From: Mobula hypostoma
Lineage: Eukaryota
Length of the DNA: 64,000 bases
Reading direction: 5' to 3'
Assembly (NCBI RefSeq): GCF_963921235.1
Contig: NC_086097.1
Span: forward strand, 60,700,001-60,764,000
The translations under genes and the position numbers were made by a program. Shown here piece after piece: positions 1 to 61,370 of the stretch (the first letter of the stretch is position 1; each line of letters begins with the position of its first letter). The notes under the pieces were generated by a model, which saw only the letters and a program-made list of their open reading frames with translations, searched no databases and was not told the origin of the DNA.

Positions 1-140
1 CAGCTACACTAATACAGCACCCCCCTTATCTGCAGGTTTGAGGGTGAGATTTGGATTAGTGCAAAGAGAATGAAGAGCAGTGCATTGAGAAAAAGTGAGG
101 TTAGAATTGGAGAGAGGAGTAGTAAACGAGATGGTCAATG

Positions 141-256
141 TTGTCTCTCCCCACTAGTCACCCTCCTGGCACTTATCCTTGTGTCTGCCCACCGGTCACC
201 CTCCTGGCACTTATCCTTGTCTCTCCCCACCGTCATCCTCCTGGCATTTATCCTTG
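141..256 (+). repeat. ~38-bp tandem repeat x3 at the 5' junction of the PLE fragment
   Basis: (c/t)cctcctggca(c/t)ttatccttg recurs at 161, 199 and 236 (periods 38 and 37). Confidence 0.9.
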
Positions 257-558
257 CAAGTGGAACAAATGCTACACCTCCTCTCTCATTGGTAAGGTCA
301 TTTACTGGCCTCCTGTATATCAGAAAGACCTGAAGTAGATTGGAATATTACTTCGCCGAGCACCTACACTCTATCTGCTAGAAAAAGTAGACCTTCTGTC
401 CTTTCCTATCAGATTACCACTTCTCTAGCCCTTTATCTCTTTCATCAATTGACCTCCCAACTCTTTAGTTTATTCTTCACCCTCTCCCAGTTTCTCTTTC
501 ACCTACTACCTTCTTCCCTCCCCCCATCTTCTTACTCTGGCTTCTCATCACTTCCCTC

Positions 559-596
559 CAGTTCTGATGAAGGGTCTTGGCCTGAAACATTGACTG
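559..596 (+). ncRNA. Minimal type I hammerhead ribozyme motif (decayed copy)
   Basis: CAGTT-CTGATGA(564-570)-AGGGTCTTGGCCT-GAAA(584-587)-CATT-GACTG. The cleavage-site CGTC seen in other copies is CATT here, consistent with CpG decay. Confidence 0.6.
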
Positions 597-1033
597 TTTA
601 CTCTTTTCCACAGATGATGTCCAGCCTGATGAGTTCCTCCACCATGTTGCATATATTACCTCATTTACAGTGGCATGCAAAAGTTTGGGTACCCCGGTCA
701 AAATTTCTGTTACTGTGAATAGTTAAGTGAGTAGAAGATGAACTGATCTACAAAAGTCATAAAGTTAAAGATGAAACATTCTTTTCAACATTAGTGTATT
801 ATTTTTGTTTTGTACAATTTTAGAGTGAAAAAAAGGAAAGGAGCACCATGCAAAAGTTTGGGCACCCCAAGAGATATGAGCTCTCAGATAACTTTTACCA
901 AGGTCTCAGACCTGAATTAGCTTGTTAGGGCTATGGCTTGTTACAATCATCGTTAGGTAAGGCCAGGTGATGCAAATTTCAAATCTTTACAAATACTCTG
1001 ACTCCTCAAACCTTGTCCCAAAAATCAGCAGCC

Positions 1034-6200: not shown

Positions 6201-7642
6201 TAAGAGGCATGGGGCAAGAAAGGTCACTCCCAGCATCAGAGACATCACACCCCCTCGATGGCACAGACTTTGAAACTAACAAAGGGTGAAATTGGAGCAG
6301 ATTGCAGGTTGCCATGCGTTGCCATGGCATCCTGTGACAGAACTAATAAATGATCCTCCAACTAAATGAAACATGGTACAATTAGAATAGCTTGGTAGCT
6401 CTTGACACCCATTCTTTTGTGGAAAATAAACACAGCCATTTTTTTTGTCCTATATAACTCACAAGTTAATTTTGTCCAAGTCATTTCAGAAAATATAATT
6501 TTTTCAGTCAGTCAAAAGTATGTTTTTTTTTAGTCAATCTTCCTATGTCATTTGACAGCATGTTAATGAAGGTTAATAAAAAGAAATCCTACACAGCATG
6601 CATCCTGCAACCTTATGTGGAACTTTACATAGATGCTGAACACATCATCATGTTATAGGAATTGTTTAAAATTTAAAATATGTTAAACACCCTAATTAAT
6701 ATTTATAGTACATAAGCATACATGGATAATATTTTGTTTTGATCGTTTTGAGAACCAGAGCACCAGAACATATAGCCACAAGAGGTTGTGGAGAAAGATA
6801 TTAAGCTTACATACTAAGTCAGGAATCAAAAGGTGGCAATAATGTCCTGAGCTACTTATATTTCAAAGCAAGCAGTACTACAGAAAAGCTGCTTGAGTTT
6901 AGGGGTTGGACCAGCATGTGGAATTATGACATTGTAGACATTAGTAAGAATTGGTTGCAGGAGCAACAGTACTGGCAGCTCAATATTCTGGGCTTCTGTT
7001 GCTTTAGATGTGATAGGACAGGAGGGTTTAAGGGGGAGTGGTGGTATTGCTAGACAGAGAAAATGTCACAGCTGTGCTCAGTCAGGACAGACCGAAGAAC
7101 TCATCCGGTGAGGCTTTATGGATAGAACTGAGGAATAGGATAATTATTACCACGTTAATGGGATTATTTTATAGACCACTCAACAGTCTGCAGGATTTGG
7201 AGGAGCAAATTTGCAGAGAGATCACAGACTGTTCCAAGGATCATAGTTGATTTTAGCTTCCCACACATAGAGATCCTAACTTGGAATTTTGATGGTATCA
7301 GAATGGATTTGGCAAGTATGAATTGGACAAGTTGTTTTCTGGCAAAGGTATACTTGGTAAGTGGAAGACTTTCAAAAGTGAAATCTTGAAAGTAAAGAGT
7401 TTGTATGTTCCTGTCAGAATAAAAAAAAATAACAAGTTTAGGGAACCTTGGTTTTCAAGAGATATTGAGGCCCTGGTTAAGAAAAAGAAGGAACTGCAAA
7501 GCAGACAGGACAAATAGGGTATTTCAGGAGTATCAGAAATGCAAGAGAACACTTAAGGGAATCAGGAGGGCTAAAAGAAGGCATGAGGTTGCTCTAGCAA
7601 ACAAGGTGAAAGAGAATCTTAACAACAGGAATTCTGCAGATG

Positions 7643-7808
7643 CTGGAAATTCAAGCAACACACATCAAAGTTGCTGGTAAACGACTGGAAATTCAAGCAA
7701 CACACATCAAAGTTGCTGGTAAACGACTGGAAATTCAAGCAACACACATCAAAGTTGCTGGTAAACGACTGAAAATTCAAGCAACACACATCAAAGTTGC
7801 TGGTAAAC
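7643..7808. repeat. 42-bp tandem repeat x4
   Basis: CTGGAAATTCAAGCAACACACATCAAAGTTGCTGGTAAACGA starts at 7643, 7685, 7727 and 7769. One mismatch, last unit 2 bp short, no spacers. Confidence 0.97.
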
Positions 7809-8124
7809 ATCGACTTCTCTAACTTCCGTTAGTGCCCCACCTCCCCCTAGTACCCCATCAGTTATTTATTTTTATACATACATTCTTTCTCTCACTCTCC
7901 TTTTTCTCCCTCTGTCCCTTTGACTATACCCCTTGCCCATCCTCTGTTTCCCCCCCCCCGCATTCGTCTTTCTCCCCAGATCTCCTGTCCCATGATCCTC
8001 TCATATCCCCTTTTCCAATCACCTGTCCAACTCTTGGCTCCATCCCTCCCCCTTCTGTCTTCTCCTATCATTTTGGATCTCCCCCTCCCCCTCTCACTTT
8101 CAAATCTCTTACTAACTCTTCCTT

Positions 8125-8166
8125 CAGTTAATCCTGACGAAGGGTCTCGGCTTGAAACGTCGACTG
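8125..8166 (+). ncRNA. Minimal type I hammerhead ribozyme motif
   Basis: CTGACGA(8134-8140)-AGGGTCTCGGCTT-GAAA(8154-8157)-CGTC-GACTG. Core and GUC triplet are intact. Confidence 0.7.
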
Positions 8167-8670
8167 TACCTCTTCCTAGAGATGCTGCCTGGCCTGCTGT
8201 GTTTACCAGCAACTTTGATGTGTGTTGAAAGAGAATCTTAATGGCCTCTACAGATAAATGAAAAGCAAATGGATAGCAAGGGGCAAAATTGCTCCTCTGG
8301 AAGATCAGCTGAAAGAGATGGGGGAAATCTTAAATGGAATTTTTACATCTCTATTTGCTCAGGAGCTAAACACAGAGTCTATTGAAGTGAGGCTAAGCAG
8401 CATGGACCCTATATGGATTAGCGAGGTAGAGGTGTTTGCTGTCATGAGGCAAATTAGGGTGGATAAATCAGCAGGGTCTGACAAAGTGTTCACTTAGACC
8501 CTGTGGGAGGTTAGTGCAGAAATTTCAGGGGCCTTGGCAGAGACATTTAAACATGGGTGAGATGCCAGAGATTTGGAGGATAGCTAATGTTGTTCGCTTA
8601 TTTAAGAAAGGCTCTACGAATAAGCCAAGAAAATTTAGGCCAGTGAGCCTGACATCCGTAGTGGGAATGT

Positions 8671-11004: not shown

Positions 11005-11935
11005 TAACAGAACTAAAGAAAACCTTGACAAAAGTACTCAGTAAATCAGAGAAAAGCAGTGGAGAAAGAAACTCTCGATTGATGTTATCGTTGGATTATC
11101 CTGTTTCATGCATTATTCTCATGCGAATATGAAAGGATAACTAGTTGACTTCTATATTGAGTCATGCTGCAACATGTATGGGTGGAAGATGAGGTATTGT
11201 TCCTCAAACTGAAAGACCGTAAAGCATCAAATAGCTGAGAGGTCAGAGTGGGAGTGAATGGAGAATTGAAGTGACAGAAAATGGGGTCATTTTAGCAGAG
11301 CACAGACAAAATTCTGGAGCAATAATTTGAGCTGATTGATCAGCGGTGTTGAGTGAAGTCATCACCCAATCTGGGCTTAGGTTCTAAAATGTCAAGACCA
11401 CATTGTGAGCACCAAACGCACCACTTGATTGGGGAAGTGTTGGGGGTGGCTGTGGTGTGAAACGAGTGCATTACTGCTTAAAAACTGAAAGTCTGTTTAG
11501 GTCCTTGACTGATGGGAGGTCTACAAAGGAGCTTCCATTTCCCTTTCACTTTATCCTTTATCCAATTCCCACTTCAACCTCCTCAGCTGTTCCAAGAAAT
11601 CCCAATGTAAGTTTGAGGAAGAATACCTATTGTTCTAATTCATCTCTTTCTAAATTACATCCCTCCAGATGGTTCAATTCTGATTAAGAAGCATTCACTA
11701 CCATTGCATAGATAGTATTATCAGTAATTCTGTCACCTAGATAGTCTCTGTATCTACCACTTTACAGATGTATTCTTTGTTGCTTGCACATTCTTGCTGC
11801 TTAACTCACACTTCTTCCATTTTTCCAGTTCTAATGAAAAGTGGAGTTCTTTTTCCCTCCCCACAGATGCTGCCCGAACTACTGAGTGTCTCCAACATGT
11901 GACTTATTTCAGATTTACAACTGCAACAGTTTCCT
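11005..11935. mobile_element. Very old PLE remnants in opposite orientations
   Basis: 11180-11300 (-) and 11530-11930 (+) weakly resemble the GIY-YIG C-terminus and the 'ccacagatgctgcc' 3' end of the other PLEs. Eroded hammerhead-like 'ccagttctaatgaa' at ~11825. Confidence 0.4.
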
Positions 11936-12775: not shown

Positions 12776-13420
12776 TTACAGCAGGCATTCAGAGTCTGCA
12801 CTATTGTCCATACAGACACTTCCTTGGCGGCCTCCTGCGAAGAATACCTGTGACCCTCCTGCACAAAGTAGATAATTGTTGCAGAAACTTCTTCACTGAA
12901 CTGTCTGGGTCTCATTTACCTTAGATCATCTTCCCACTGCCCATACCTCTCTCCCATTCTTCAAAAGAGTGTCTAGTCATTAAGTAATGGCTCTCTTCTA
13001 TAGCTGGATGAATGTTTCTTGTGATGTGCTTTATTCTTTTGAGAGCTGGCTACAAAAATGCTGAGACAATATACAGTAGATGAATAGAGTAGACACCTTG
13101 CTGAAACTGACAAAATGCAATGCTACACTTCAGGGGAGACTTGCACTTGATAATCTCAGTTTTTTTTTAATTGCTATTTTTGCACATAGCATTTGGGTTA
13201 CTAATAACACTACTTCAAAGCCATTGAAAGGAAGCGACACAATGTTTTCATCTGATGTTATTGAGGACAACACAAAGATGACAAATATAAAGAGGACCAG
13301 CATAATATTTATTGCTGAATTACAAACAAGAGAAAAGCTGTAGACGCTGGAAACCAAAGCAATACACACAAAATAATGGAGGAACTTGGCAGCCCACGTA
13401 GCACCTATGGAAAAGAGTAA

Positions 13421-13460
13421 ACAATCGACGTTTTGGGCTGAGGCCCTTCACCAGGAGTGG
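13421..13460 (-). ncRNA. Hammerhead motif in the inverted PLE arm (core mutated)
   Basis: Reverse complement reads CACTC-CTGGTGA-AGGGCCTCAGCCC-AAAA-CGTC-GATTG, with two core substitutions. Confidence 0.5.
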
Positions 13461-16178
13461 AAAAAAAAGGATGAGATGTCAGAGTAAGAAGGTGGGAGGA
13501 GGGGAGGAAGAAATACAAGGTGAAACCGGGAAAGGGGGAGGTGTGAAGTAAAGTGCTGCAAAGTTGTTTGGTGAAGAAGATAAAGTCCTGGAGAAGGGGG
13601 AATCTGATAGAAAAGGTCAGAAGGCCATGGAAGAAAGGGAAGGGGGAGCAGCACTGAAGGGAGGTGATGGACAGGTAAGGAGATAAAGTGAGAGAGGGAA
13701 ATAGAAATAGGGAATTGTGAAGGAGAGGTGGGAGTGGGCAATTACCGGAAGTATGAGAAATTGATGTTCATGCCATCAGGTTGGAGGCTTCCCAAACAGA
13801 ATATAAGGTGTTGCTCCTCCGACCTAATTGTGGCTTCATCACAGTAGTAGAGGAGGCCATGCATGGTCTAACATGTCAGAATAGGAATAGGAAGTAAAGT
13901 TGAAATGGGTGGCCACCGAGAGATCCTACTTTTTCTGGCAAATGGACAGTAGGTGCTCGGAAGCAGTCCCATAATCTACGTCAGGTCTCACCGATATACT
14001 GGAGGTCCCCACAGCTTCAAAGGTGAAGTGTCATCTCAGCTGGAAGGACAGTTTGGAGCTCTGGATGATAGTAAGGAGGAGGTGTAGGGGCAGGTGTGGT
14101 ACTTGTTCCACTAGCAAGGATTATTACCAGGAGAGAGATCAGTGGAGAGGGATCAATGGACAAAGGAGTCAGATTGGGAACAATCCCAGTGGAAAGCAGT
14201 AAGTGGGGGGACAGAGAAAGGTATGCTTGGTGGTGGGATCCCATTGGAAATGGCAGAGTTACTGAGAATTATATGCTGGACGTGAAGGCTGGTGGAAAGG
14301 TAGGTGAGAACAAGAGGAACCCTATCCCTGCTGAGGTGGCCTCAGATGGGGTAAGAGAAAATGCATTATAGATTCATCCCCCATCAGGTAGGTCACAAAG
14401 CTCTCCACTTCTTTCTGGACACCAGACTCAACTATTTTCCCTCCAGCACTACTCTGCTCCGGCTGGTGGAACAGGTCCTCACTCTCAATAATTTCTCTTT
14501 TGGCTTTTCCCACTTCCTTCAAACAAAAGATGTAGCCATGAGCACTTGCATGGGTCCCAGCTATGCCTGCCATTTTGTCAGCTATGTGTAATGGTTTAAG
14601 TTCCAAGTTTACACCAGTATTATTCCACAACTTTCCCTACACTACATCGTCGACTGAATTGGTGTTGCTTCCTGCACCCATGTTGAGCTCATCAACTTCA
14701 TCAACTTTACCTCCAACTTCCACCCTGCCGTCAAATTTGCCTGGTCTATTTCTGACAACTCCCTCCCCTTTCTCGAACTAGAGACAGTTTATTCACTGAT
14801 GTTTTTCATAAACCCACTGATTCTCACTGCTACCTGAATTATATCTCTTGTCGCTCTGTCACGTGATATCCATTCCTCTCAACTCCTCTGTCTTCAACAC
14901 ATCCGCTCCCAGGATGAAGCTTTTCAGTCTAGAACTAATGAGATGTCCTCCTTCTTCAAAAAAAAGGGGTTATCCTTCCTCCACCAACAATCTCTTCCAT
15001 TTTGCGCATGTCTGCACTCACCCTATCCACCTACTACACAACCTGGGATAGGGTTCCTCTTGTCCTCACCTACCACTCCATCAGGCTTCATGCCCAGCAC
15101 ATAATTGTCCATAGCCTCTGCCATCTCCAATGGGATCCCACCACCCAGCATATCTTGCCCTCCTACACTCTTTCTGCTTTCCACGGGCATCACTCCCTAC
15201 ATGACTCCCTTGTCCATTCCTCCCTCCCCACTGATCTCCATCCTGGTATTTATCCTTCCAAGTGGCACAAGTGATACACCTGACCCCACTCCTCCTCCCT
15301 CACTACTATTCAGGGCTCCACACAGGCCTTCGAGGAGAATCAACACTTCACCTGTGAGTCTGTTGTGGTCATCTACTGTATCCGGTGCTCCTGGTGTGGC
15401 TCCTGTATATTGATGAGATCCGACATGGATTGGGAGACTTCTTCATTATGCACCTACGCTTCGTCCACTGAAAAAAGTGGGATCTCCCGGTGGGCACCCA
15501 CTTCAGTTCTATTTCCCAACAGTCCTTGGCCTCCTCTTCCTTCTTCAGCTGTCCGTCGATTCCGATATTGACTGTGCTGAGAGGTTAGTCTCTGCAGGCA
15601 CGTTTATGGGCCTCGAGACCAGCATTGGATCGGCACTGTCTTGCACGTCGGTTGCATCTGTGATTTGACTGGTCTAGCACTGAATGTCTGCGTTCATGAC
15701 CTGCTTCATATTTCTTCTACCTCTTCTCTTCAATAGCTGGAATTGACTTCTTGACAATGCAGTGCCAACTTCTTCTAACGAAAGCATCTTTCTCCCAGGT
15801 GTTGACATTCATCTCAGTTTTCTTCATCTGGTGCTTGAGCACATCTTTGTAGCACGGCTTCTGACCACCATGCTTCCTCTTTCCTTCATGTCATAGTCAT
15901 AGTCATAGCCATACTTTATTGATCCCGGGGGAAATTGGTTTTCATTACAGTTGCACCATAAATAATAAATAGTAATAAAACCATAAATAGTTAAATAGTA
16001 ATATGTAAATTATGCCAGGAAATAAGTCCAGGACCAGCCTACTGGCTCAGGATGTCTGACCCTCCAGGGGAGGAGTTGTAAAGTTTGATGGCCACAGGCA
16101 GGAATGACTTCCTATGACGCTCAGTGTTGCATCTCAGCGGAATGAGTCTCTGGCTGAATGTACTCCTGTGCCCACCCA

Positions 16179-19100
16179 TAAGACCATAAGACAAAGGAGC
16201 AGAAGTAGGCCATTCGGCCCATCGAGTCTGCTCTACCAGTTTATCATGAGCTGATCCATTCTCCCATTTAGTCCCACTACCCCGCCTTCTCACCATAACC
16301 TTTGATGCCCTGGCTACCCATCAATCTCTGCCTTAAATACACCCAATGACTTGGCCTCCACTGCTGCCCGTGGCAACAAATTCCATAGATTCACCACCCT
16401 CTGACTAAAACAATTTCTTCGCATTTCTGTTCTGAAAGGGCGCCCTTCAATCCTGAAGTCATGCCCTCTCGTACTAGACTCCCCTATCATGGGAAACAAC
16501 TTTGCCACATCCACTCTGTCCATGCCTTTTAACATTCGAAATGTTTCTATGAGGTCTCCCCTCATTCTTCTTAACTCCAAGGAATACAGTCCAAGAGTGG
16601 ACAAACGTTCCTCATATGTTAACCCTCTCATTCCCAGAATCATTCTCGTGAATCTTCTCTGTACCCTCTCCATTGTCAGCACATCCTTTCTTAAATAAAG
16701 AGACCAAAACTGCCCACAGTACTCCAAGTGAGGTCTCACCAGCGCCTTATAGAGCCTCAACATCACATTCCTGCTCCTATACTCTATTCCTCTAGAAATG
16801 AATGCCAACATTGCATTCGCCTTCTTCACTACTGACTCAACCTGGAGGTTAACTTTAAGGGAATCCTGTACGAGGACTCCCAAGTCCCGTTGCATCTCAG
16901 AACTTTGAATTCTTTCCCCATTTAAATAATAGTCTGCCCGTTTATTTTTTCTGCCAAAGTGCATAACCATACACTTTCCAACATCGTACTTCATTTGCCA
17001 CTTCTCTGCCCATTCTTCCAATCTATCCAAGTCTCTCTGCAGACTCTCCGTTTCCTCAGCACTACCGGCCCTATCTTCGTATCGTCAGCAAACTTAGCCA
17101 CAAAGCCATCTATTCCATAATCCAGATCGTTGATGTACAATGTAAAAAGAAGCAGCCCCAACACTGATCCCTGTGGAAAACCACTGGTAACCGGCAGCCA
17201 ACCAGAATAGGATCCCTTTATTCCCACTCTCTGTTTCCTGCCAATCAGCCAACGCTCTATCCACGTATGTAACTTTCCCGTAATTCCATGGGCTCTTATC
17301 TTGTTAAGCAGCCTCATGTGTGGCACCTTGTCAAACGTCTTCTGAAAATCCAAATATACAACATCCACTGCATCTCCCTTGTCTAGCCTACTGGTAATTT
17401 CCTCAAAAAATTGTAATAGGTTTGTCAGGCAGGATTTTCCTTTAAGGAATCCATGCTGAGTTCTGCCTATCTTGTCATATGCCTCCAGGTACTCTGTAAC
17501 CTCATCCTTGACAATCGACTCCAACAACTTCCCAACCACCGACGTCAAGCTGACAGGTCTATAATTTCCTTTTTGCTTCCTTGCTCCCTTCTTAAATAGC
17601 GGAGTGACATTTGCAATCTTCCAGTCTTCCGGAACCATGCCAGAATCTATCGACTTTTGAAAGATCATCGCTAATGCCTCCGCAACCTCCACAGCTACTT
17701 CCTTCAGAACACGAGGGTGCATTCCATCTGGTCCAGGAGATTTATCGACCTTTAGCCTATTCAGCTTCCTGAGTACTTTCTCTGTCGTAATTGTGACTGC
17801 GCACACTTCTCTTCCCTGCCACCCTTGAGTGTCCGGTATCCTGCTGTCTTCCTCAGTAAAGACTGATGCAAAATACTTGTTCAGTTCCTCTGCCATCTCC
17901 TCATCTCCCATTACAATTTCTCCAGTATCATTTTCTATCTGTCCTATATCTACTCTCACCTGTCTTTTACTCTTTATATACTTGAAAAAGCTTTTAGTAT
18001 CCTCTTTGATATTATTTGCTAGTTTCCTTTCATAGTTAATCTTTTCTCTCTTAATGACCTTCTTGGTTTCCTTTTGTAAGGTTTTAAAAACTTCCCAATC
18101 CTCTGTCTTCCCACTAATTTTTGCTTCCTTGTATGCCCTCTCCTTTGCTTTAACTTTGGCTTTGACTTCTCTTGTCAACCACTGTTGCATCCTTTTTCCA
18201 CTCGAAAATTTCTTCTTTTTTGGAATATACCTGTCTTGCACATTCCTCATTTTTCGCATAAACTCCAGCCACTGCTGCTCTGCCGTCTTTCCCGCCAGTG
18301 TCTCTTTCTAGTCAACTTTGGCCAGTTCCTCTCTCATGCCACTGTAGTTTCCTTTACTCCACTGAAACACCGACACATCAGATTTCGGCTTCTCTTTTTC
18401 TAATTTCACAGTGAACTCAATCATGTTATGATCACTGCCTCCTGAGGGTTCCTTCACCTCAATCTCTCCAATCACCTCCAGTTCATTACACAATACCCAT
18501 CCAGTACAGCCGATCCCATAGTGGGCTCAACAACAAGCTGTTCTAAAAAGCCATCTCGCAGACATTCTACAAATTCTCTGTCTTGAGATCCAGTGCCGAC
18601 TTGATTTTTCCAATCTACTCGCATGTTAAAATCCCCCACAATTATCAAAGCACTGCCCTTCTGACAAGCCCTTTCTATTTCCAGTTGTAATTTGTAGTCC
18701 ACATCCCTGCAGCTGTTTGGAGGCCTATAAATAACTGCCATCAGGGTTTTTTTACCCCTGCTATTCCTTAGCTCAACCCATAAAGATTCTGCACCTTCCG
18801 ATCCTATATCACCTCTTTCTAACGATTTAATATCATTTCTTACCAATAAAGCCACGCCTCCCCCTCTGCCTACCTTCCTATCCTTCCGATACACCGTGTA
18901 TCCTTGGACGTTCAGCTCCCAGAGACATGCATCCTTTAGCCAAGTCTCAGTGATGGCCACAATATCATACCTGCCAATCTGTAGCTGTACAACAAGTTCA
19001 TCCACCTTATTCCTCATGCTGCGTGCATTTAAGTACAACACCTTAAGACCAGTATTAGATACTTTTTACTTTGATTTCACTGCAACTTTATTGCACTTCA

Positions 19101-19283: not shown

Positions 19284-21275
19284 CCCAGTACATTATGTAG
19301 TGGATGGGAGACATTGTCCAAGATGGCATGCAACTTAGACAGCATTCTCTTTTCAGACACACCGTGAGAGAGTTCAGTTCCATCCCCACAACATCACTGG
19401 CCTTACGAATCAGTTTGTTGATTCTGTTGGTGTCTGCTACCCTCAGCCTGCTGCCCCAGCACACAACAGCAAACATGATAGCACTGGCCACCACAGACTC
19501 GTAGAACATCCTCAGCATTGTCCGGCAAATGTTAAAGGACCTCAGTCTCCTCAGGAAATAGAGACAGCTCTGATCCTTCTTGTAGACAGCCTCAGTGTTC
19601 TTTGACCAGTCCAGTTTATTGTCAATTCGTATCCCCAGGTATTTGTAATCCTCCACCATGTCCACACTGACCCCCTGGATGGAAACAGGGGTCACTGGTA
19701 CCTTCGCTCTCTTCAGGTCTACCAGCAGCTCCTTAGTCTTTTTCACATTAAGCTACAGTTAATTCTGCTCACACCATGTGACAAAGTTTCCTACCGTAGC
19801 CCTGTACTCAGCCTCATCTCCCTTGCTGATGAATCGAGCTATGGCAGAGTCATCCGAAAACTTCTGAAGATGACAAGACTCTGTGCAGTAGATGAGGTCT
19901 GAGGTGTAAAGGGTGAAAAGAAAAGGAGACAAGACAGTTCCCTGTGGAGCCCCAGTGCTTCTGATCACTCTGTCAGACACACAGTGTTGCAAGCACACGT
20001 ACTGTTGTCTGCCAGTCAGGTAATCAAGAATCCATGACACCAGGAAAGCATCCACCTGCATCGCTGTCAGCTTCTCCCCCAGCAGAGCAGGGCGGATGGT
20101 GTTGAACGCACTGGAGAAGTCAAAAAACATGACCCTCACAGTGCTCGCTGGCTTGTCCAGGTGGGCGTAGATATGGTTCAGCAGGTAGACGATGGCATCC
20201 TCAACTTCTAGTCGGGGCTGGTAGGCGAACTGGAGGGGATCTAAGTGTGGCCTGACCATAGACCGGAGCAGCTCCAGAACAAGACTCTCCAGGATCTTCA
20301 TGATGTGGGAGGTCAATGCTACTGGTCTGTAGTCATTGAGGCCGCTGGGGCGCGGCGTCTTCGGCACAGGGATGAGGCAGGATGTCTTCCACAGTAGAGG
20401 AATCCTCCGGAGCCTTAGGTTCAGGTTGTAGCTCGCCAGAGAAAACAGCTTTGGGTAAAGGATCATCGCTCATTCTTGTGACATGACCAGTCCAACACAG
20501 CTGAGAAGCTGTAATGAGCAATTCTACACTGAGATGTATTAGCACTTCCACATCTGGTACCCTCCCTTGTCACTTGATCTGTAATATTTGGCGTAAATGC
20601 CTGTGTTGTGTCTTGGTCAATTTCTCGATGTGCTTCCGATACAATGTCATCGTTTCAGTTGAATAAAGCAGAGATGGTAAAACACTTTGACCTTGGTTGC
20701 CATTTTGATGTCATGGCAAGACCAAAGTCGCTTCTGCAAAGCACCAAAGACTTTTGTAGCTGATTGAATTATCCCCTCAACTTCCAGATCTGATGAGTTC
20801 GTGTTGGTCACAGTGCTTCCTAAGTATGTGAAAGAGTCAGAATATTTCAGCGCTACCCTATTGACCGATATGACTGATTGAACTACTGCCATGATGAAGC
20901 CACATTCAGGTTGGAGGTGTAAACCTTATATTCCATTTGGGTAGTCTCCAACCTGACGGCATAAAGATCGATTTCTTGAATTTACAGTAATTGCTCCCCC
21001 CCCCAAGACTTCCTTCAGCGTTTCCCATACCTATTTCCCTCTCCCAACTTATCTCCTTATGTGCCATCATCTCCCTCTGATGTTCCTTCAGCTTCCCTTT
21101 CTTCCATGGCCTTCAGTCCTCTCCTATCAAATTTCCCCTTCTCCAGACCTTTATCTCTTTTACCAATCAACTTCCCAGCACTTTACTTCACCCCCCCCTT
21201 TCCCGGTTTCACCTATCACCTACTTCTTCTTCCCCTCCTCCCACCTTCTTACAATGACTTCTCATCTTTTGTTTC

Positions 21276-21313
21276 CAGTCCTGATGAAGGGTCTCACCCC
21301 GAAACGTCAACTG
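21276..21313 (+). ncRNA. Minimal type I hammerhead ribozyme motif (core intact)
   Basis: CAGTC-CTGATGA(21281-21287)-AGGGTCTCACCCC-GAAA(21301-21304)-CGTC-AACTG. Confidence 0.7.
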
Positions 21314-22409
21314 TTCACTCATTTCCATAGTTGGTCCAGCCTGCATTTTGTGTGTGTTGAATTTATTGCTGAATTGATGAAGTTTTGGATATTATCCTCA
21401 TTAATATCTTTCTAGCTGAATTAACTGTTCTATTTTTGGATTAAGTTCATCTTTCAAAATGGAAAAAAAAAATCTTTGCTCCAAAGAGGGTTTTTTTTGC
21501 CAAAGCTCCAAGGATTCCAATCCAGTGTAGCTGGTCTCATTGAAGTTGGCAAGTACTTTTACCATTAAGTTAGAGGAAATGATTTTCCTATAGCATGCTG
21601 TGAAAACACACTTTATGGATAATATTATTTCACTTTCAAATTCAAATGAGAGGAAAGATTCAAAGGAAAAAGCTCTTGGAGAGAGAAAAATAAAAGATCA
21701 GAGAAATATACCTTCAATTGATTCTAACTCTCATTCTCTAGCTAAGTTTATCATAATATTATCCTGCTGTGGGGAATGTAAAGATAGTACTGAGCCAAAT
21801 ACAAATTATGTAATGAAGGACGACCCAGTTCTTAGTCCATCCACTTCAAAAGAACAGCAACTTGCAAGTTTGGCTTGCTCCCATTTAAAAATAACAGCAT
21901 TTTATTTTGGCTTTAATCAATATCAGGCGGAACATTGGAATATAGGTTTAGGAGCAGGAGTACACCACCTGGCCTTTTGAGTCTGCTGCAGCATTCATTA
22001 AGGTCTTTTATCTCAAAACCACTTTCCTCAATGGACAGCATGTCCTTCCATTTTCTTAAATATATTTATGCCTAAACTTCCACAGGTTGACCTAGTAATG
22101 AATCCCAGAGATTCACTATTAGAGTGGGTGAACAGATCACTTGTCTCAGTGCTAAATACCCAATCTCATACTTTGTGATCATTGGTATTAGATAACCAAT
22201 GAAGGGAAACAACATCTTTACCTCTTCCATGTCAAGACCTGTAAGCATTTTTTGATGTTTTGAGTGATGCCATTCATTTCCTAGGCACTGTCTTATTCTC
22301 CAGTGGGAGGTCTAATTATGTATTCTATTCTTAGGACCTCTATGTATTGATTAAGGAAACTTTCTTGAGCACATTTAACAAACTCTATCCCATTCAGCTC
22401 CTTTACAGT

Positions 22410-35415: not shown

Positions 35416-37025
35416 TGTAATGAAGAGCTTTAGTTTACTTGTTGGCCGAAAACCACTTCTAATGTGTGGGCCATCGATTTGTCCACTGAAAGGTGCAGCA
35501 GCTATTTCCTATTCATTGGCTTGTGTGTCTTGGCACCAGAGTCTGACTTCAGGCACCTTCCATTGTCTTTAGGACACCCACTGGCAGACCACAGTACGTG
35601 TGCTTGCAACACTGTGTGTCCGACAGAGTCACCAGCAGCACTGGGACTCCACAGGGGACTGCCTTGTCTCCCTTTCTCTTCACCATTTACACCTCAGACT
35701 TCAACTACTGCACAGTGTCTTGTCATCTTCAGAAGTTTTCGGATGACTCTGCCATAGTTGGATGCATCAGCAAGGGAGATGAGGCTGAGTACAGGGCTAC
35801 GGTGGGAAACTTTGTCACATGGTGTGAGCAGAATTATCTGAAGCTTAATGTGAAAAAGACTAAGGAGCTGCTGGTAGACCTGAGGAGAGCTAAGGTACCC
35901 GTGACCCCTGTTTCCATCCAGGGGGTCAGTATGGACATGGTGGAGGATTACAAATACCTGGGGATATGAATTGACAATAAACTGGACTGGTCTAAGAACA
36001 CTGAGGCTGTCTACAAGAAGGGTCAGAGCCGTCTCTATTTCCTGAGGAGACTGGGGTCCTTTAACATCTGCTGGATGATGCTGAGGATGTTCTATGAGTC
36101 TGTGGTGGCCAGTGCTATCATGTTTGCTGTTGTGTGCTGGGGCAGCAGGCTGAGGGTAGCAGACACCAACAGAATCAACAAACTCATTCGTAAGGCCAGT
36201 GATGTTGTTGGGATGGAACTGGACTCTCTCACGGTGGTGTCTGAAAAGAGGATGCTCTCTAAGTTGCATGCCATCTTGGTCAATGTCTCCCATCCACTAC
36301 ATAATGTACTGGGTGGGTACAGGAGTACATTCAGCCAGAGACTCATTCCACCGAGATGCAACACTGAGCGTCATAGGAAGTCATTCCTGCCTGTGGCCAT
36401 CAAACTTTACAACTCCTCCCTTGGAGGATCAGACACCCTGAGCTGATAGGCTAGTCCTGGACATTTCATAATTTACTGGCATAATTTACATATTACTATT
36501 TATTTATTACTATTTTCTATTACTATTCTATTACTATTTATTATTTCTATGACTATTACTATTGACTGTTTACTAATAGTAATATTACTATTACTATTTC
36601 TATTACTATTTATTATTTATGGTGCAACTGTAATGAAAACCAATTTCCCCCGGGATCAATAAAGTATGACTATGACTACTATGACTATCTTTACACTGAG
36701 GTTACGACTGGTGCTGAGAAACCATTGGGAATGTTTGCTGCAGAGTTAGGAGGGTCCACTCACACTTTTCGCTAAGTGTCTGCTTGTTGAATGTTTAGTT
36801 TTGTAATTGTGTAACTTGGGGAGATTTAATGAAGTTCCTGTTGAGTTTGAAGGGTTACTGAATATTTAGTATCATAGTTTGTGTAACTTAGTGTGGCTCA
36901 GGTATTTGGTCAAATTTTTTACTGTTTATCTATATATAAATGATTAATGTGCTTATTTATAATCAATGTCTTCTCTCCCACTTATAAAACCCATGAACCC
37001 GCTTCTTCTTAACTAGGGGATTGCA
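35416..37025 (+). mobile_element. Probable solo LTR, split by Rex1
   Basis: Non-CR1, non-coding segment TGTAAT...GGGGATTGCA inside the CR1. TSD ambiguous (ACTGAA at 35407 and 37025). Confidence 0.4.
35572..36687 (+). mobile_element. Rex1/Babar LINE, 5'-truncated
   Basis: GTPQGTALSPFLF, QKFSDD, RHRKSFLPVAIKLYN; AATAAA followed by (TATGAC)n; TSD TCTTTA at 35566-35571 and 36688-36693. Confidence 0.93.
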
Positions 37026-51498: not shown

Positions 51499-54400
51499 TC
51501 ATAGTCAGAGTCATACTTTATTGATCCCGGGGGAAATTGTTTTTTGTTACAGTTGCACCATAAATAATTAAATAGTAATAAAACCATAAATAGTTAAATA
51601 GTAATATGTAAATTATGCCAGGAAATATTTCCAGGACCAGCCTACTGGCTCAGGGTGTCTGACCCTCCAAGGGAGGAGTTGTAAAGTTTGCTGCCACAGG
51701 CAGGAATGACTTCCTATGACGCTCTGTTTTGCATCTCAGTGGAATGAGCCTCTGTACTCCTGTGCCCAACCAGTACATTATGTAGTGGATGGGAGACATT
51801 GTTCAAGATGGTATTCAACCTGGACAGCATCCTCTTTTCAGACACCACCGTCAGAGAGTCCAGTTCCATCCCCACAATATCACTGGCCTTACGAATGATG
51901 TTGTTGATTCTGTTGGTGTCTGCTACCCTCAGCCTACTGCCCCAGCACACAACAGCAAACATGATCGCACTGGCCACCACAGACTCGTAGAACATCCTCA
52001 GCATCATCTGGCAGATGTTAAAGAACCTCAGTCTCCTCAGGAAATAGAGACGGCTCTGACCCTTTTCGTGGACGGCTTCAGTATTCTTTGACCAGTCCAG
52101 TTTATTGTCAATTTGTATCCCCAGGTATCTGTAATCCTCCACCATGTCCACACTGACCCCCTGGATGGAAATAGGGGTCGCTGGTACCTTAGCTCTCCTC
52201 AGGTCTACCACCAGCTCCTTAGTCTTTTTCACATTGAGCTGCATATAATTCTGCTCACACCATGTGACAAAGTTTCCTACCGTAGCCCTGTACTCAGCCT
52301 CATCTCCCTTGCTCATGCATTCAACTATGGCAGAGTCATCCGAAAACTTCTGAAGATGACAAGACTCTGTGCAGTAGTTGAAGTCCGAGGTGTAAATGGT
52401 GAAGAGAAAGGGAGACAAGGCAGTCCCCTGTGGAGCCCCAGGTCCTCTGATCACTCTGTCGGACACAGTGTTGCAAGTACATGTACTGTGGTCTACCAGT
52501 CAAGTAACCAAGAATCCATGACACCAGGAAAGCATCCACCTGCATTGCTGTCAGCTTCTCCCCCACCAGAGCAGGGCAGATGGTATGAAATGCGCTGGGG
52601 AAGTCAAAAAACACGACCCTCACAGTGTTCACTAGCTTGTCCAGGCGGGCGTAGACACAGTTCAGCAGGTAGATGATGGCATCCTCAACTCCTAGTTGGG
52701 GCTGGTAGGCGAACTGGAGGGGATCTAAGTGTGGCCTGACCATAGGCCGGAGCAGCTCCAGAACAAGACCCTCCATGGTCTTCATGATGTGGGGGGCCAA
52801 AGCCACCGGTCTGTAGTCATTGAGGCCGCTGGGGCGCGGCATCTTCGGCACAGGGACGAGACCGGACGTCTTCCACAGCACAGGAGCCCTCCGGAGCCTT
52901 AGGCTCAGGTTGAAGACATGGCGAAGTACTCCACATAGCTGAGGGGCACAGGCTTTGAGCACCCTGGTACTGACACCATCCAGTCCTGCAACCTTGCTTG
53001 GGTTGAGACGTTTCAGCTGTCTTCTCACCTGTTCAGCTGTGAAGCCCATCATGGTGGTTTCGTGTGGGGAACGGGTATAGTCATGAGAGCAGGGTGGGGG
53101 ACTGTGAGGAGGGGTAGGAGGGGAGAGTGGAATATGTGTTGGTTGGGGGCCGACAACAGATGAATTATGTGAGGGATGGGCAGGGGTCACAATGTCAAAT
53201 CTGTTAAAGAACAGGTTAAGTTCGTTGGCCCTGTCCACACTGCCCTCAGCTCCTCTGTTGCTAGTTTGCCGGAACCCAGTGATGGTCCTCATCCCCCTCC
53301 AGACCTCTCTCATGTTGTTCTGCTGGAGTTTCCACTCAAGCTTCCTCCTGTACCTGTCTTTAACCTCCCTGATCCTGGCTTTCAGGTCCCTCTGTATTGC
53401 CCTCAGCTCCTCCCTATTTCCATCTCAAAACACCCTCCTTTTAGCGTTCAGGATGTCCTTAATGTCCTTTGTTATCCATGGCTTGTTATTTGAATAACAA
53501 AGGACAGCTCTTGTCGGAACATTGCAGTCCACACAGAAGGTGATGTTTTCAGTGATGCATTCTGTGAGCCCATCAATATCCTCTCCATGTGGCTCACAGA
53601 GTGCCTCCCGGTCCGTCACCTCAGAACAACCCTGGAGCACCTCATAAACCTCCTCTGACTATTTCCTCACTGTCCTCGAGGTTGCAGGTTTACTCTTCAC
53701 CAGAGGCACGTAGCAGGGTTTTAGATGCACCAGGTTGTGATCTGACCTTCCCAATGGGGGGAGGGGAGAGGAGCTGCATGCATCCTTAACATTATCGTAC
53801 ATCAAATTCAGAGTCCTCTCCCCTCTGGTTGTACAGCTCACATATTGCATGAAGTTGGGTAGTGTTCTAGCCATAGTAACATGTTGAAGTCACCCGAGAT
53901 GGTAATGAGGGCACTCGGGTGCTGGGTTTGTAATCTGGTTATGACAGTGTAAATGATGTTACATGCCGACGTCGGGTTGGCAGAGGGAGAGATGTACACA
54001 ACAACAACAATTGCATTCGAGATTTCCCTTGGCAAATAATATGGCCGGAGTCCAACAGCAAAAAGTTCAATATCTGGGCTACAAACACATTCCTTGATCG
54101 TAATATGACCAGGATTACGCCATCTGTTGTTTACCAGAACTGCAAGCCCACTTCCTTTACATTTACCGCTCTCAGTGCAATCCCAGTCAGCCCGAATGGT
54201 CTGGAAGCCCTCTGTGGAAACGTTTTGATCGGGTATGTCTTCGTGCAGCCATGTTTCAGTAAAACACATAACACTGCTCTCCCGAAATGTTCTCTGACCC
54301 CTGACAAGCGCCGCCAACTTGTCCATTTTATTACCCAGCGATCTCATCTTGCCCATAATGAGAGAGGGGAGACACGGGTTATAACTTCTCTTCTCCATAA

Positions 54401-54786
54401 GCCTCTGTTGTCTCGACCCGGTCCTCTTCCCTTGCCTTTTTGACCCCTCCTCTGCATCCTCTGTGTGTTTTCCTCCCGATTTCAGCTGGGGTGTCCGCTG
54501 CTTTGTTTGCTAAACCGGCCGGCATAAGCGCAATCAGCTGGTCCCTGGAATAAACAATGCGACCATCCTGCTGCCATGCTAATGAGACATGTCCGAATGT
54601 AACTATTTCCGGTGCTAAAAAAACAAATAGAACTCTCTCCACCAGCATGTTAGAGAGAGTGCAGCTTCAATGTGTTACCGTGAGAAAAAAAATACAACAA
54701 ATAACCTAAGTTAAAAAAGTTTAAAAAGTAAGAAACGGAGCAACTGTAACAGGCTGCAGGCACGACCGGCACATGCGCACTAGATG
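51499..54786 (-). mobile_element. Apparently full-length Rex1/Babar LINE (~3.3 kb; single APE-RT ORF, frameshifted)
   Basis: Short 5' UTR; ATG 54648; YSRDQLIAL; CFTETWL, LRPYYLPRE, SGDFN, GRSDH (APE); NDYRPVAL, PQGTALSP, FSDD (RT); (TATGAC)-type tail at 51499-51514. Confidence 0.93.
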
Positions 54787-56907: not shown

Positions 56908-59900
56908 TGTATTTTTGTAATATTGTTAATATTGTTTGATTAAGCATTCATTATTGTTTACGTAATTCATTTGGGTTATAAGTGCGTGAATGGTATACAC
57001 CATTACGCCACCATGTCTTAAGTGTGCGCTACCATATCATAAGAATGAAGCAGACAGCCATCTCCCAGTTCTGTGTTTTTCTTTCAATTTGTTTCATGTT
57101 TCAGAGTTACAAGACATAATAGTGGCAACGAGTAAGTTTTAAAATGAACCCAAGGTGAATTCCAATATGTTCAAATGCAGCTAGTTCTTTCTCCGCAAGG
57201 GAGGGCGGGAGGGAGGGGTTGGAGAGAGGGAGAGGGATATTTGAATTCTAAAAAGAGCACAGTACTTTGTTTTATTCAGAAGTGCAGAAAGATGGTTGAG
57301 TTAATAAAATGATAGAAATTGGACAACATTCATAGTCTCATAAACAGTGAGTACAGGTGATAATAATAGACTTTAAAAAAGCAGAAATGACTGACTACAT
57401 CATTAAGAGAGATCTGCTCAATTGCACTAAAGATAACTGGCTGAGGTTTACTGAATGAATTGAGCAGTATTTTAAAGCAAATGGAATAGCCAATGAAAAG
57501 CTAGTGCCAGATTTGCTGAGTGCATTAGATGGAAGAGCATACATTTTGCTCAGAAGTTTAACTGCTCCAACCAAATCAGCTGAAATAAGCTTTGCTGATT
57601 GCACGAAAGTAATGCAAGAGCATTTAGAACTGAAACCATTGATTGCAGAATGCTTTACATTTCAGAAATGAAATCTAAAGGAGGAGTGTCCATTTCAGCA
57701 GATGTGGCTGAATTGAAGAGCTTGTCTGTGCATCGTCAGCTTAGTGATTGCCTTGATGATGTACTGAGAGATCATAACGTATGCAGAATCTTACAAGAAA
57801 GTATTCAAAAACAGCTCTTGACTGAAGCACAACTCATTTAAAATATCAGTTGAAATCACTTTTCCAATGGAAACAACAGGGAGAGATGCAATTGAGTTGC
57901 AGTTAGGAATGAAGGAGAGAGTGAACAAATTGGAAAGTCAAAACAGGAACCTGCCTGGCTGGAAAAAAAATTGTTACTATTGTGGCAGGGGCTTACATAC
58001 TGCAGACCAATGTAAGTTTAAAGGCCAGAATTAATGAAAATAGTGGGAAAAACTTCAGCAGAGTGGACAGATGAGACCTACCTACAGATGGAGATGGAAG
58101 AACAGTTCAAAGTGTTTTTCACCATAAACTCACACAAAGGGCTTTATTGCTATTATAGGCTTATTTTAGGAGGAGCCTCTGCACTTGCACTCTGGAAGAC
58201 TACTCAGGCACTCAGTTACATCATTGTTACCTGTGAGGATGACGAGGAACATCTTCAAAATCTCAAGACAGTGTTAAAAAGATTAGAAGATTATGGCCGC
58301 AGAACATGGTGCAACAAGTGTGAATTATTCAGACAAAGCATCACTTACCATTGACGTACATGTATTACAGAAGTGTACTGAGAAAATTTCAGCACTGGTG
58401 GATACCCCAAGGCAAAAGTATATGTCATAGTTGTAATCCTTTTCTTGATTTGACAATTACTATAATAGGTTCTTGCCAAATCTGGCTACTGTACTCCACC
58501 TCTTAAACTTATTACTACAGATTGGGAAGAAATGGCAATGGACAAAGCAGTGTGAGGTGTCTTTCCAAAAGACATAGGAAATGGTGACATCAGACATTGT
58601 ATCCACACATTATGATCCACATCATCCAGTGAAGCTTCCCTGTGATTCCTCGTCTTATGCTATCGGTGCAGTTATGTCACATATTATGAGTGATGGAAGT
58701 GAACGTCCTATAGACTTTGAATCACGTTCCCTTACCACTGCAGAGAAAAATATGCACAGTTTGACAAAGAGTCTAGTTTGGGGTGTAATATATTTCAATT
58801 AGTGCTTGTATGGGATAGAGTTTACCCTCATTACCGATCATCAACCACTAGTGTCCATTTTCAATCTACAGAAGGGTGTTCCATTTGCGGCAATACCACA
58901 AGTGCAGAGGTGGGCTCTGTTTCTTGGAGGACAAAATTACAAATTAATTCAAGAGCACAATTAATCATGGAAATGCTGTTGAATTGTCCCGTTTATCCTT
59001 GGAGAAAGGTAATACCTGAAAAAATTACAAAAGAGGTCACTCCTCTTGATGTTTTCTCCCTAATGCAAATTAAAAGTTTACATATTGCAGCAGAGATGAT
59101 CCAAAGGGAAACTAGAAAAGACCCTCCCCCCAGTGTATCACATTTACATGACCACCCAGAAATGGCTGGAATATGTACTACTACACTTAGTCAGTGGCAA
59201 TGGACCACAGTTTCTGAAAATTAATGGAGTAAGCCATATTACAGCTGCATCGCACCAGCCAGCTACAAATGTCTTGGAGGAAAGGTTTGTCCAGAAACTA
59301 AAGAATGCACCTCAAGCAAAGTCAGCGGAATGCACTTCGCTTACACTAAATCAGAACCTCACCATTTTTTTCCTTACATATCACAATGCAGCACAGTCCG
59401 CAATTAACAACAAACCAGCTATGCTATTCCTGGGTCATCCCTTGTGCTCATGCTCGGATCTCCTCAAATCCAATCTCAGAATGAGAATTCAGGACAAAAA
59501 GCTGAGACAAATTGAGGGCTCCTCAAACAAAAAGTTTCAATGTTTCCCTCCTGGACAAGCAGACCTGCCAAGGGACAGCAGAGGTGATCAAAAGTGGGTA
59601 CTGGAAAATATTAAGGACACAACTGGACCACTCTCCTGCTCAATGGAGATTGTGTCTGATGTCATCTGGCGATGGCATATCAAACAGTTGAGAAAAGCAA
59701 TGTCAATTGTTTGAGAAGAAAGGTGTCCACGCTGTCAGAACCACTTCCTAATGACACAATGGAGGAGGCGCCAGCACCTGGGGTGAGTACGTGAATGGCA
59801 TATGACATGGTGGTACAATAACATAAGTGTGTGCCTTGATAAAGTAAGAAAGAAGACAAGCATCTCTCAGCTCCGCATTGTTGTTTTGATTAGTTTTATC

Positions 59901-61244: not shown

Positions 61245-61370
61245 AGGTTCTGGTGAAGGGTCTCAGTGCCAAACATCAGCTCTTTATTCCTTTCCATCTC
61301 TCCATAGTTTCTTCCTGACCTGCAGAGTTCCTCCACATTTCGTCTGTGTTACTCTTGACCTCTGCTTCTG
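61245..61370 (+). mobile_element. PLE 3' terminal remnant with eroded hammerhead motif
   Basis: CTGGTGA-AGGGTCTCAGTGC-CAAACATC, then 'ctgacctgcagagttcctcca' as in the other PLE ends. Confidence 0.55.

Follow-up and report, generated by a model that had tools for sequence, protein, structure and literature searches.

Dispersed and decaying minimal hammerhead motifs from a Penelope-like element family in the ray Mobula hypostoma

The window analysed here (the whole 64-kb stretch of DNA, 64,000 nucleotides of Mobula hypostoma contig NC_086097.1) contains five homologous copies of a hammerhead motif, each 38 nt long. The repeated motif is a real hammerhead motif that is decaying, and it is an example of an already described feature, the minimal hammerhead (min-HHR) in Penelope-like repeats. 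Very probably, the copies in the window are dead, dispersed minimal type I hammerheads that derive from the pLTR of a Neptune-type Penelope-like element (PLE) of the ray and that now decay neutrally.

An earlier, sequence-only reading had placed five copies in this window, and homologous motifs are indeed present near all five positions; the second copy covers 8129-8166 and does not begin at 8125, and the fifth lies at about 61245-61282. That all five literally share the same elements was an idealised description which fits no single copy. Scored against the majority sequence of the four copies that have no gaps, and in the usual hammerhead position numbering, the copy at 559-596 (+ strand) has an intact core, together with a U2.1-G1.1 wobble, C11.1U, G16.2A and C17U. 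The copy at 8129-8166 (+) belongs to another subfamily (N7 = C) and also has an intact core; its 2.3/1.3 pair is mismatched, and U at both 11.1 and 11.2 results in G-U pairs at 10.1/11.1 and 10.2/11.2. The copies at 13459-13422 (- strand; A6G, G12A, stem I mismatch at 2.3-1.3) and at about 61245-61282 (+; A6G, G12 lost, G16.2A) are relics, whose cores are broken because of A6G and the absence of G12. The conserved core CUGANGA / GAAA / UH is thus intact in three of the five copies (559, 8129 and 21276), and the core together with all helices in none of them. The palindrome 15.2-16.2 is kept in 8129, 13459 and 21276 and lost in 61245 and 559, in the latter because of G16.2A, which abolishes the stem III palindrome. 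A shared repeat of about 150-200 nt can be aligned among the copies; only in 61245 does the homology start at the motif. With a profile built from the five copies, nhmmer detects a sixth relic that the earlier reading had not listed (11823-11900, +; E 1.1e-5, next match E 0.87), in which stem II and GAAA are deleted and the downstream flank is kept.

The copy on which the analysis was centred, 21276-21313 (+), has an intact core. It consists of the stem I 5' strand (21276-80), the core (21281-87), the extra A (21288), a stem II of 3 bp (21289-91/21298-300), GAAA (21301-04), the palindrome (21304-07), C17 (21308) and the stem I 3' strand (21309-13). As there is A and not G at 21309 (G1.1A), C2.1 faces A1.1, and the pair beside the scissile bond is lost. 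There is also G11.4C at 21297 and a loop change at 21296. The cuts that had been predicted after 21308 and after 8161 are correctly placed.

Could the end of a repeat resemble a hammerhead merely by chance? An RNA-motif descriptor of the kind that had been proposed as a check (CUGANGA, stem II of at least 3 pairs with an optional extra base, GAAA, UH, and 4/5 stem I pairs) recovers three copies (sites 564, 8134 and 21281), whereas 100 dinucleotide shuffles yield 0.04 on average and never more than 1, and it confirms the intact cores that had been assigned to the copies at 8134 and 21281. The other proposed check, with Rfam covariance models, gave no hammerhead family, neither in the whole window (E up to 1) nor in two 131-nt stretches (E up to 10), which formally speaks for chance. 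Rfam hammerhead models expect a stem-loop III, which min-HHRs do not have. A search for a loose 12-base pattern, 2 mismatches being allowed, likewise gives no excess over chance, with 25 matches in the window vs 20.75 expected, and nine other matches among these 25 showed no hammerhead upon inspection. The descriptor result, the corresponding position and architecture of the motif in related elements, the agreement with every trait of the published consensus, the stem covariation, and the identity of the relatives' motif with an Acropora motif (see below) all contradict a chance likeness, which we consider extremely improbable.

The element that carries the motif can be recognised from its coding remnants. 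In tblastn searches, four of the five motifs have ORF remnants upstream on the same strand: 185-387 (+; linker and GIY-YIG) upstream of 559, 7803-7958 (+; last ORF codons at 7803-7832) upstream of 8129, 14338-13706 (-; thumb end, linker and GIY-YIG) upstream of 13459, and the last codons at 20878-20975 (+) upstream of 21276. Some 290-300 nt separate the ORF stop from the motif. No ORF remnant was found by tblastn upstream of copy 61245, whose homology runs about 100 nt downstream. The earlier assignment to minimal type I hammerheads of a Penelope-like 3' repeat therefore stands, as four of the five copies follow a PLE ORF and the published traits agree. The window ORF remnants match proteins of the type of the relatives P0002 and P0032, with an RT followed by GIY-YIG in a single ORF (P0032: RVT_1 E 4e-8, GIY-YIG E 1e-5; P0002: GIY-YIG E 5e-4), and both domains are also recorded for relatives in Atlas rows. 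The frame 14993-15271 has one relative among 24 candidates, the Hypanus sabinus gene model P0001 (E 1e-23), and a search with this model yielded 334 relatives, of which the closest with a named source come from Hypanus, Mobula and sharks; Pfam gave no family for P0001 and three window fragments. Between thumb and endonuclease there is a CX4CxxC linker, in which C318 and C323 are invariant and C326 is nearly so (alignment A2), and a CX2-5CxxC linker between RT and EN is described in PMC8557442 as a mark of Neptune and Nematis. By its sequence, the element is an EN+ Penelope-like element and most likely belongs to the Neptune clade.

The arrangement of the insertions agrees with the PLE insertion signature given in PMC8557442, namely inverted 5' pieces and a tail extension of 30-40 bp: in the window, an inverted 5' piece, a tail extension and a target-site duplication (TSD) are seen. 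The truncated copy at 101-661 (+), with the motif 559, lies beside an inverted N-terminal ORF piece (132-7, -). A whole insertion unit surrounds copy 8129 (7623-8227, +; tblastn with P0002, E 2e-12), flanked by a 15-bp TSD (7608-7622 / 8227-8241), and its left end is an inverted 3' tail that includes a 35-nt extension absent at the right end. Within this inverted tail (7623-7812), a 42-bp unit occurs in about four head-to-tail copies, which suggests repeated re-priming or slippage as reverse transcription starts. The truncated copy at 13355-14338 (-), with the motif 13459, stands head to head with an inverted ORF piece that reaches from the RT core to GIY-YIG and is devoid of the motif (14367-15528, +), and an inverted GIY-YIG relic (11507-11155, -) lies beside the sixth relic. 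The 5'-truncated copy at 20878-21358 (+; tblastn with P0002, E 4e-6) contains, in this order, the last ORF codons, a pyrimidine-rich 3' region, the hammerhead 21276 and a GT-rich end; it is 79% identical to the copy at 13850-13402 over 456 nt, and inspection of its flanks revealed no clear TSD. Neither a full-length element nor a tandem pLTR pair is present within the window.

Two gene models consist almost wholly of Penelope-like ORF, P0004 (Hypanus, divergent protein kinase domain 1C isoform X2) and P0006 (Mobula, chitinase domain-containing protein 1 isoform X1); this is probably due to mis-annotation or exonisation. In a zebra shark protein (P0011), the C-terminal peptide reads like a translated motif, which suggests that sharks share the family. 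Behind the motif, at 21314-21335 and at equivalent positions, there is a pyrimidine tract followed by AG, to which the family adds an ATG; this resembles a splice acceptor before a start codon, an arrangement that the relatives lack. Introns at the 5' end are known in PLEs.

Two bacterial MAGs (CBDDTI01..., CBDHDM01...) include contigs with seven loci that code for related proteins, and as these contigs carry animal retrotransposons they are probably host contamination. Three relatives that were compared share 41-58% amino-acid identity with the ray proteins. At six of the seven loci the motif lies directly downstream of the ORF match, in five of them at a distance of about 105-135 nt; at L070 this downstream copy is damaged and a separate inverted copy is intact, and at the seventh locus the match ends before the endonuclease. 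The loci are not independent of each other, since six of them come from one MAG. An alignment of four ray motifs and three motifs of relatives (A3) shows 90% of 70 stem cells paired vs 8-41% with slid partners, and the pairs 2.1/1.1 and 2.2/1.2 are changed on both sides, so that the covariation expected for stem I was indeed found between distant relatives. The covariation score is reached by 4/500 shuffles; only 3 pairs are doubly changed, and this number is reached by 218/500 shuffles. With seven sequences from essentially two lineages, the covariation is to be taken as support and not as proof. An unpaired A between 9 and 10.1 is present in all 7 rows, and also in copy 61245. The 10.1-11.1 pair is G-C in 5/7 rows and G-U in 2/7, helix II is 96% paired, and the helix I of 4-5 bp is typical of the family, with exceptions at 2.1-1.1 (21276) and 2.3-1.3 (8129, 13459). 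All three relatives keep the palindrome 15.2-16.2.

The motif of the relatives is identical to that of Acropora digitifera in Fig. S3 of PMC4209133, where Table S1 ties it to a Neptune element, and the ray motif is therefore a homologue of a published example. It shares with the Acropora motif the spacing, a 4-bp helix II that starts with GGG, a 4-nt loop and the CGUC end. Like the min-HHRs described in PMC4209133, it has a type I topology, a helix I of 4-5 bp, the extra base 9/10.1, G10.1-C11.1, no loop III, a palindromic 15.2-16.2 and a U-rich 5' flank, and it occurs mostly as a single motif at the 3' end of truncated elements. In contrast to the coral type, which has U-A and C-G in stem I, the ray motif has C2.1-G1.1 and U2.2-A1.2, a compensatory difference, and its distance of about 290 nt from the ORF is larger than the about 105-135 nt of the relatives. 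Unlike the published min-HHRs, the ray copies in the window are all damaged. No cartilaginous fish is among the rows of Fig. S3 of PMC4209133 that were compared. The Anolis Poseidon element PAc, as described in PMC11167929, likewise has a hammerhead in the pLTR of a vertebrate EN+ PLE and tail extensions at insertion ends, but it belongs to the Poseidon clade without a Zn-finger linker, its ORF starts at stem II, and a protein-assisted cleavage is shown for it, whereas the ray family is known here from sequence. Non-LTR retrozymes also carry a type I hammerhead derived from PLE pLTRs and are reported in one chondrichthyan genome (bioRxiv 10.64898/2026.07.22.740005), but they are described there as tandem repeats with one hammerhead per unit, whereas the window copies are single and four are accompanied by ORF remnants. 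A retrozyme identity was rejected, as the window holds single copies only and no tandem units.

Further observations and searches accompany this comparison. The core change U4C is found at four related loci (L068 at about 2615, L069, L071 and L072) and is possibly an amplified core variant; U4 is kept in L070 and L074. Two more min-HHR families with longer helix II and different palindromes, of an A-U-A-U type and a 6-nt type, occur at L068:4734-4777 and L069:2182 / 295, consistent with a covariation of dimer palindromes. None of the 13 stretches obtained in a search of viral contigs for related loci was confirmed. A 19-base anchor downstream of the motif matched 1 viral and 66 metagenome loci, of which 0/67 had a hammerhead core upstream, and these were discarded as chance matches. 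A loose pattern search of two genomes (G001, G002) gave 502 / 227 forward matches vs 515 / 242 in the control, which is mostly noise.

How large and how variable is the family? When Logan contigs were aligned to 21225-21520 at 80% likeness, 15,711 (DNA run X1) and 13,566 (X5) contigs were placed. The summed depth, which is not a copy number, peaks at 21275-21304, where it reaches 1.45 million in X1 as compared to 10.9 for the unique flank; within about 20 bases on either side it drops more than 10-fold, with loose contig ends at 21272 and 21314-15. This shows a very large family, in which subfamilies have the motif in common and differ in their flanks. Several hundred contigs, unrelated in their flanks, start at the 5' edge of stem I, like copy 61245, and are possibly a short, motif-headed non-autonomous form; in some X1 and X5 contigs the first motif is followed by another one after 40-110 nt, and these are candidates for natural dimers. 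From the runs X21 and X22, which are guessed to be RNA, 643 / 1384 family contigs were obtained and none on the unique flank; contigs cannot show ends. For organism B, one contig (number 32 of run X5) reaches from 21280 to 21520 and differs at 4 letters, with 3 gaps; since it covers the motif together with the unique flank, the insertion at 21276 predates the split of A and B.

At 11.4 (21297), G is the family state with 94% of the depth (X1). Across four runs, the common variants lie at CpG sites, namely C11.1U (31-45%), C15.2U (14-31%) and C17U (3-17%). No variant of at least 2% is seen at G12-A15.1, G16.2 and U16.1, where alignment or clipping bias is possible; this invariance hints at selection in the source elements, while the window copies do show G12A and G16.2A. 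The absence of variants at 21280-21292 was set aside, because reads probably need an exact seed there. At 21309, G makes up only 27-48% of the depth across runs (30% in X1) and A most of it. Reference bias together with CpG decay probably explains this majority, although a source lineage with C2.1-A1.1 may also lie behind it. A comparison between subfamilies (8129 vs the others) gives identities of 74-79% for the motif and 58-61% for the 150 nt upstream, whereas within the subfamily 559/13459/21276 the values are 71-82% in the motif and 69-82% in the upstream flank, which indicates that the motif was constrained in the source lineages and not after insertion. CpG transitions account for 9/19 departures though CpG columns are only 8/38 (binomial p 0.009), a test that is favoured because two tied columns were set to the CpG state. 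We infer that the copies decay neutrally after insertion, mostly by CpG deamination.

The processing of PLE transcripts by the ribozyme is a published hypothesis. In active source elements, as can be derived from the literature, two motifs would swap strands, their 4-nt palindromes would pair as stem III, and the resulting dimer hammerhead, probably helped by the element's own protein, would cut a multi-unit transcript after C17. The monomer would be off, and its off state may be a rod formed by pairing of G5-G8 with C15.2-C17. Such a rod is predicted for copies 21276 and 559 and for both relatives that were folded, and it buries the core and the cut site; for 8129 and 13459, two unrelated or partial hairpins are predicted. 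The copies have ordinary folding energies (z -0.4 to -1.4). For the majority sequence, a strand-swapped double hammerhead can be drawn without mismatch, with -14.7 vs -29.9 kcal/mol for an inactive dimer (ViennaRNA, tertiary contacts being outside the model). According to PMC4209133, min-HHR monomers do not cleave and dimers or trimers cleave weakly, and other factors have been proposed; the Anolis PAc hammerhead cleaves only with the element's protein (PMC11167929). The ribozyme of the source elements would hence be off by default and would need dimer formation, and probably protein, to become active, and the inserted copies in the window would be inert relics without any meaningful cutting of host RNA.

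It could be argued that cleavage is unneeded even in the source elements, and that the motif is a structural relic or a signal for protein binding or reverse transcription. The rod fold predicted to hide the core would agree with this. PMC11167929 reports that cleavage is dispensable for insertion of PAc in vitro, as hammerhead mutants had no effect, and that no RNA-seq reads begin or end at the cut site, and according to PMC8557442 Naiads spread without canonical hammerheads. On the other hand, core and palindrome are kept and the stems covary between the ray and the invertebrate-type relatives, the lack of variants of at least 2% at G12-A15.1, G16.2 and U16.1 (subject to the alignment bias mentioned above) differs from the 31-45% at C11.1U, and PAc cleaves with protein and is rescued by G8C/C3G (PMC11167929). 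We therefore regard a relic or signal without cleavage as unlikely, though as a more serious possibility than chance likeness or the cutting of host RNA. The latter had been suggested for the copies at 8134 and 21281, which were thought able to cut host pre-mRNA transcribed on the + strand, either alone or, as one may add, as a complementing pair. Both copies keep the conserved core, and the insertion at 21276 is common to organism B. As a dimer swaps strands, crippled copies could complement each other, and in stems I and III the enzyme half of 21276 and the substrate half of 8129 can indeed be paired without any mismatch; together they could rebuild a fully paired hammerhead that cuts after 8161. 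If this were true, then, given how numerous such motifs are in ray genomes, chance pairs of them in long nascent transcripts, helped by the element's protein, could constitute a diffuse layer of cutting on host pre-mRNA and could drive selection on the orientation and spacing of intronic motifs. Yet the copies are 13 kb apart, both have helix lesions, and neither a tandem partner nor a host exon was found. No host protein domain was detected in 190/215 stop-to-stop frames of at least 48 aa in non-repeated stretches, a scan that short exons would escape and that matched transposon-type domains and, weakly, DUF7834 (E 0.007, below the cut-off). The lesion at 21309 is an innermost stem I mismatch, the kind that has the greatest effect on rate according to PMC8495972, and the A there is predicted to lengthen the inactive rod by a U4-A1.1 pair. 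In a 158-nt context, the stem I pairing probability is at most 0.13 for 21276 and 0 for 8129. Nor do the published min-HHRs speak for competent single copies, given inactive monomers and weak dimers in vitro (PMC4209133) or the need for a protein (PMC11167929). That the two copies are still active on host pre-mRNA is thus very improbable, and a rebuilt hammerhead acting in such a diffuse layer would be just as improbable.

The surroundings of the copies are dominated by transposable elements, and 40% of the window is self-repeated. There is a remnant of a Tc1/mariner-type transposase at 971-2472 (Sleeping Beauty HTH, E 8e-8), and remnants of LINE-type RT/endonuclease and of an LTR-type RT/integrase lie at 16314-19065, 35434-36446, 51714-54509 and 58022-59714.

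The finding would gain much in weight only if host transcripts were cut by dispersed copies, and this analysis offers no support for such cutting. With the copies as dead, dispersed min-HHRs, an already described feature is extended to a Neptune-type family of a ray, and coral-type and ray elements turn out to have kept one motif lineage, with compensatory changes. As a family of very high copy number with two or more subfamilies, it is a good data set for studying selection on the catalytic core, a question that bears on what the ribozymes of Penelope-like elements do.
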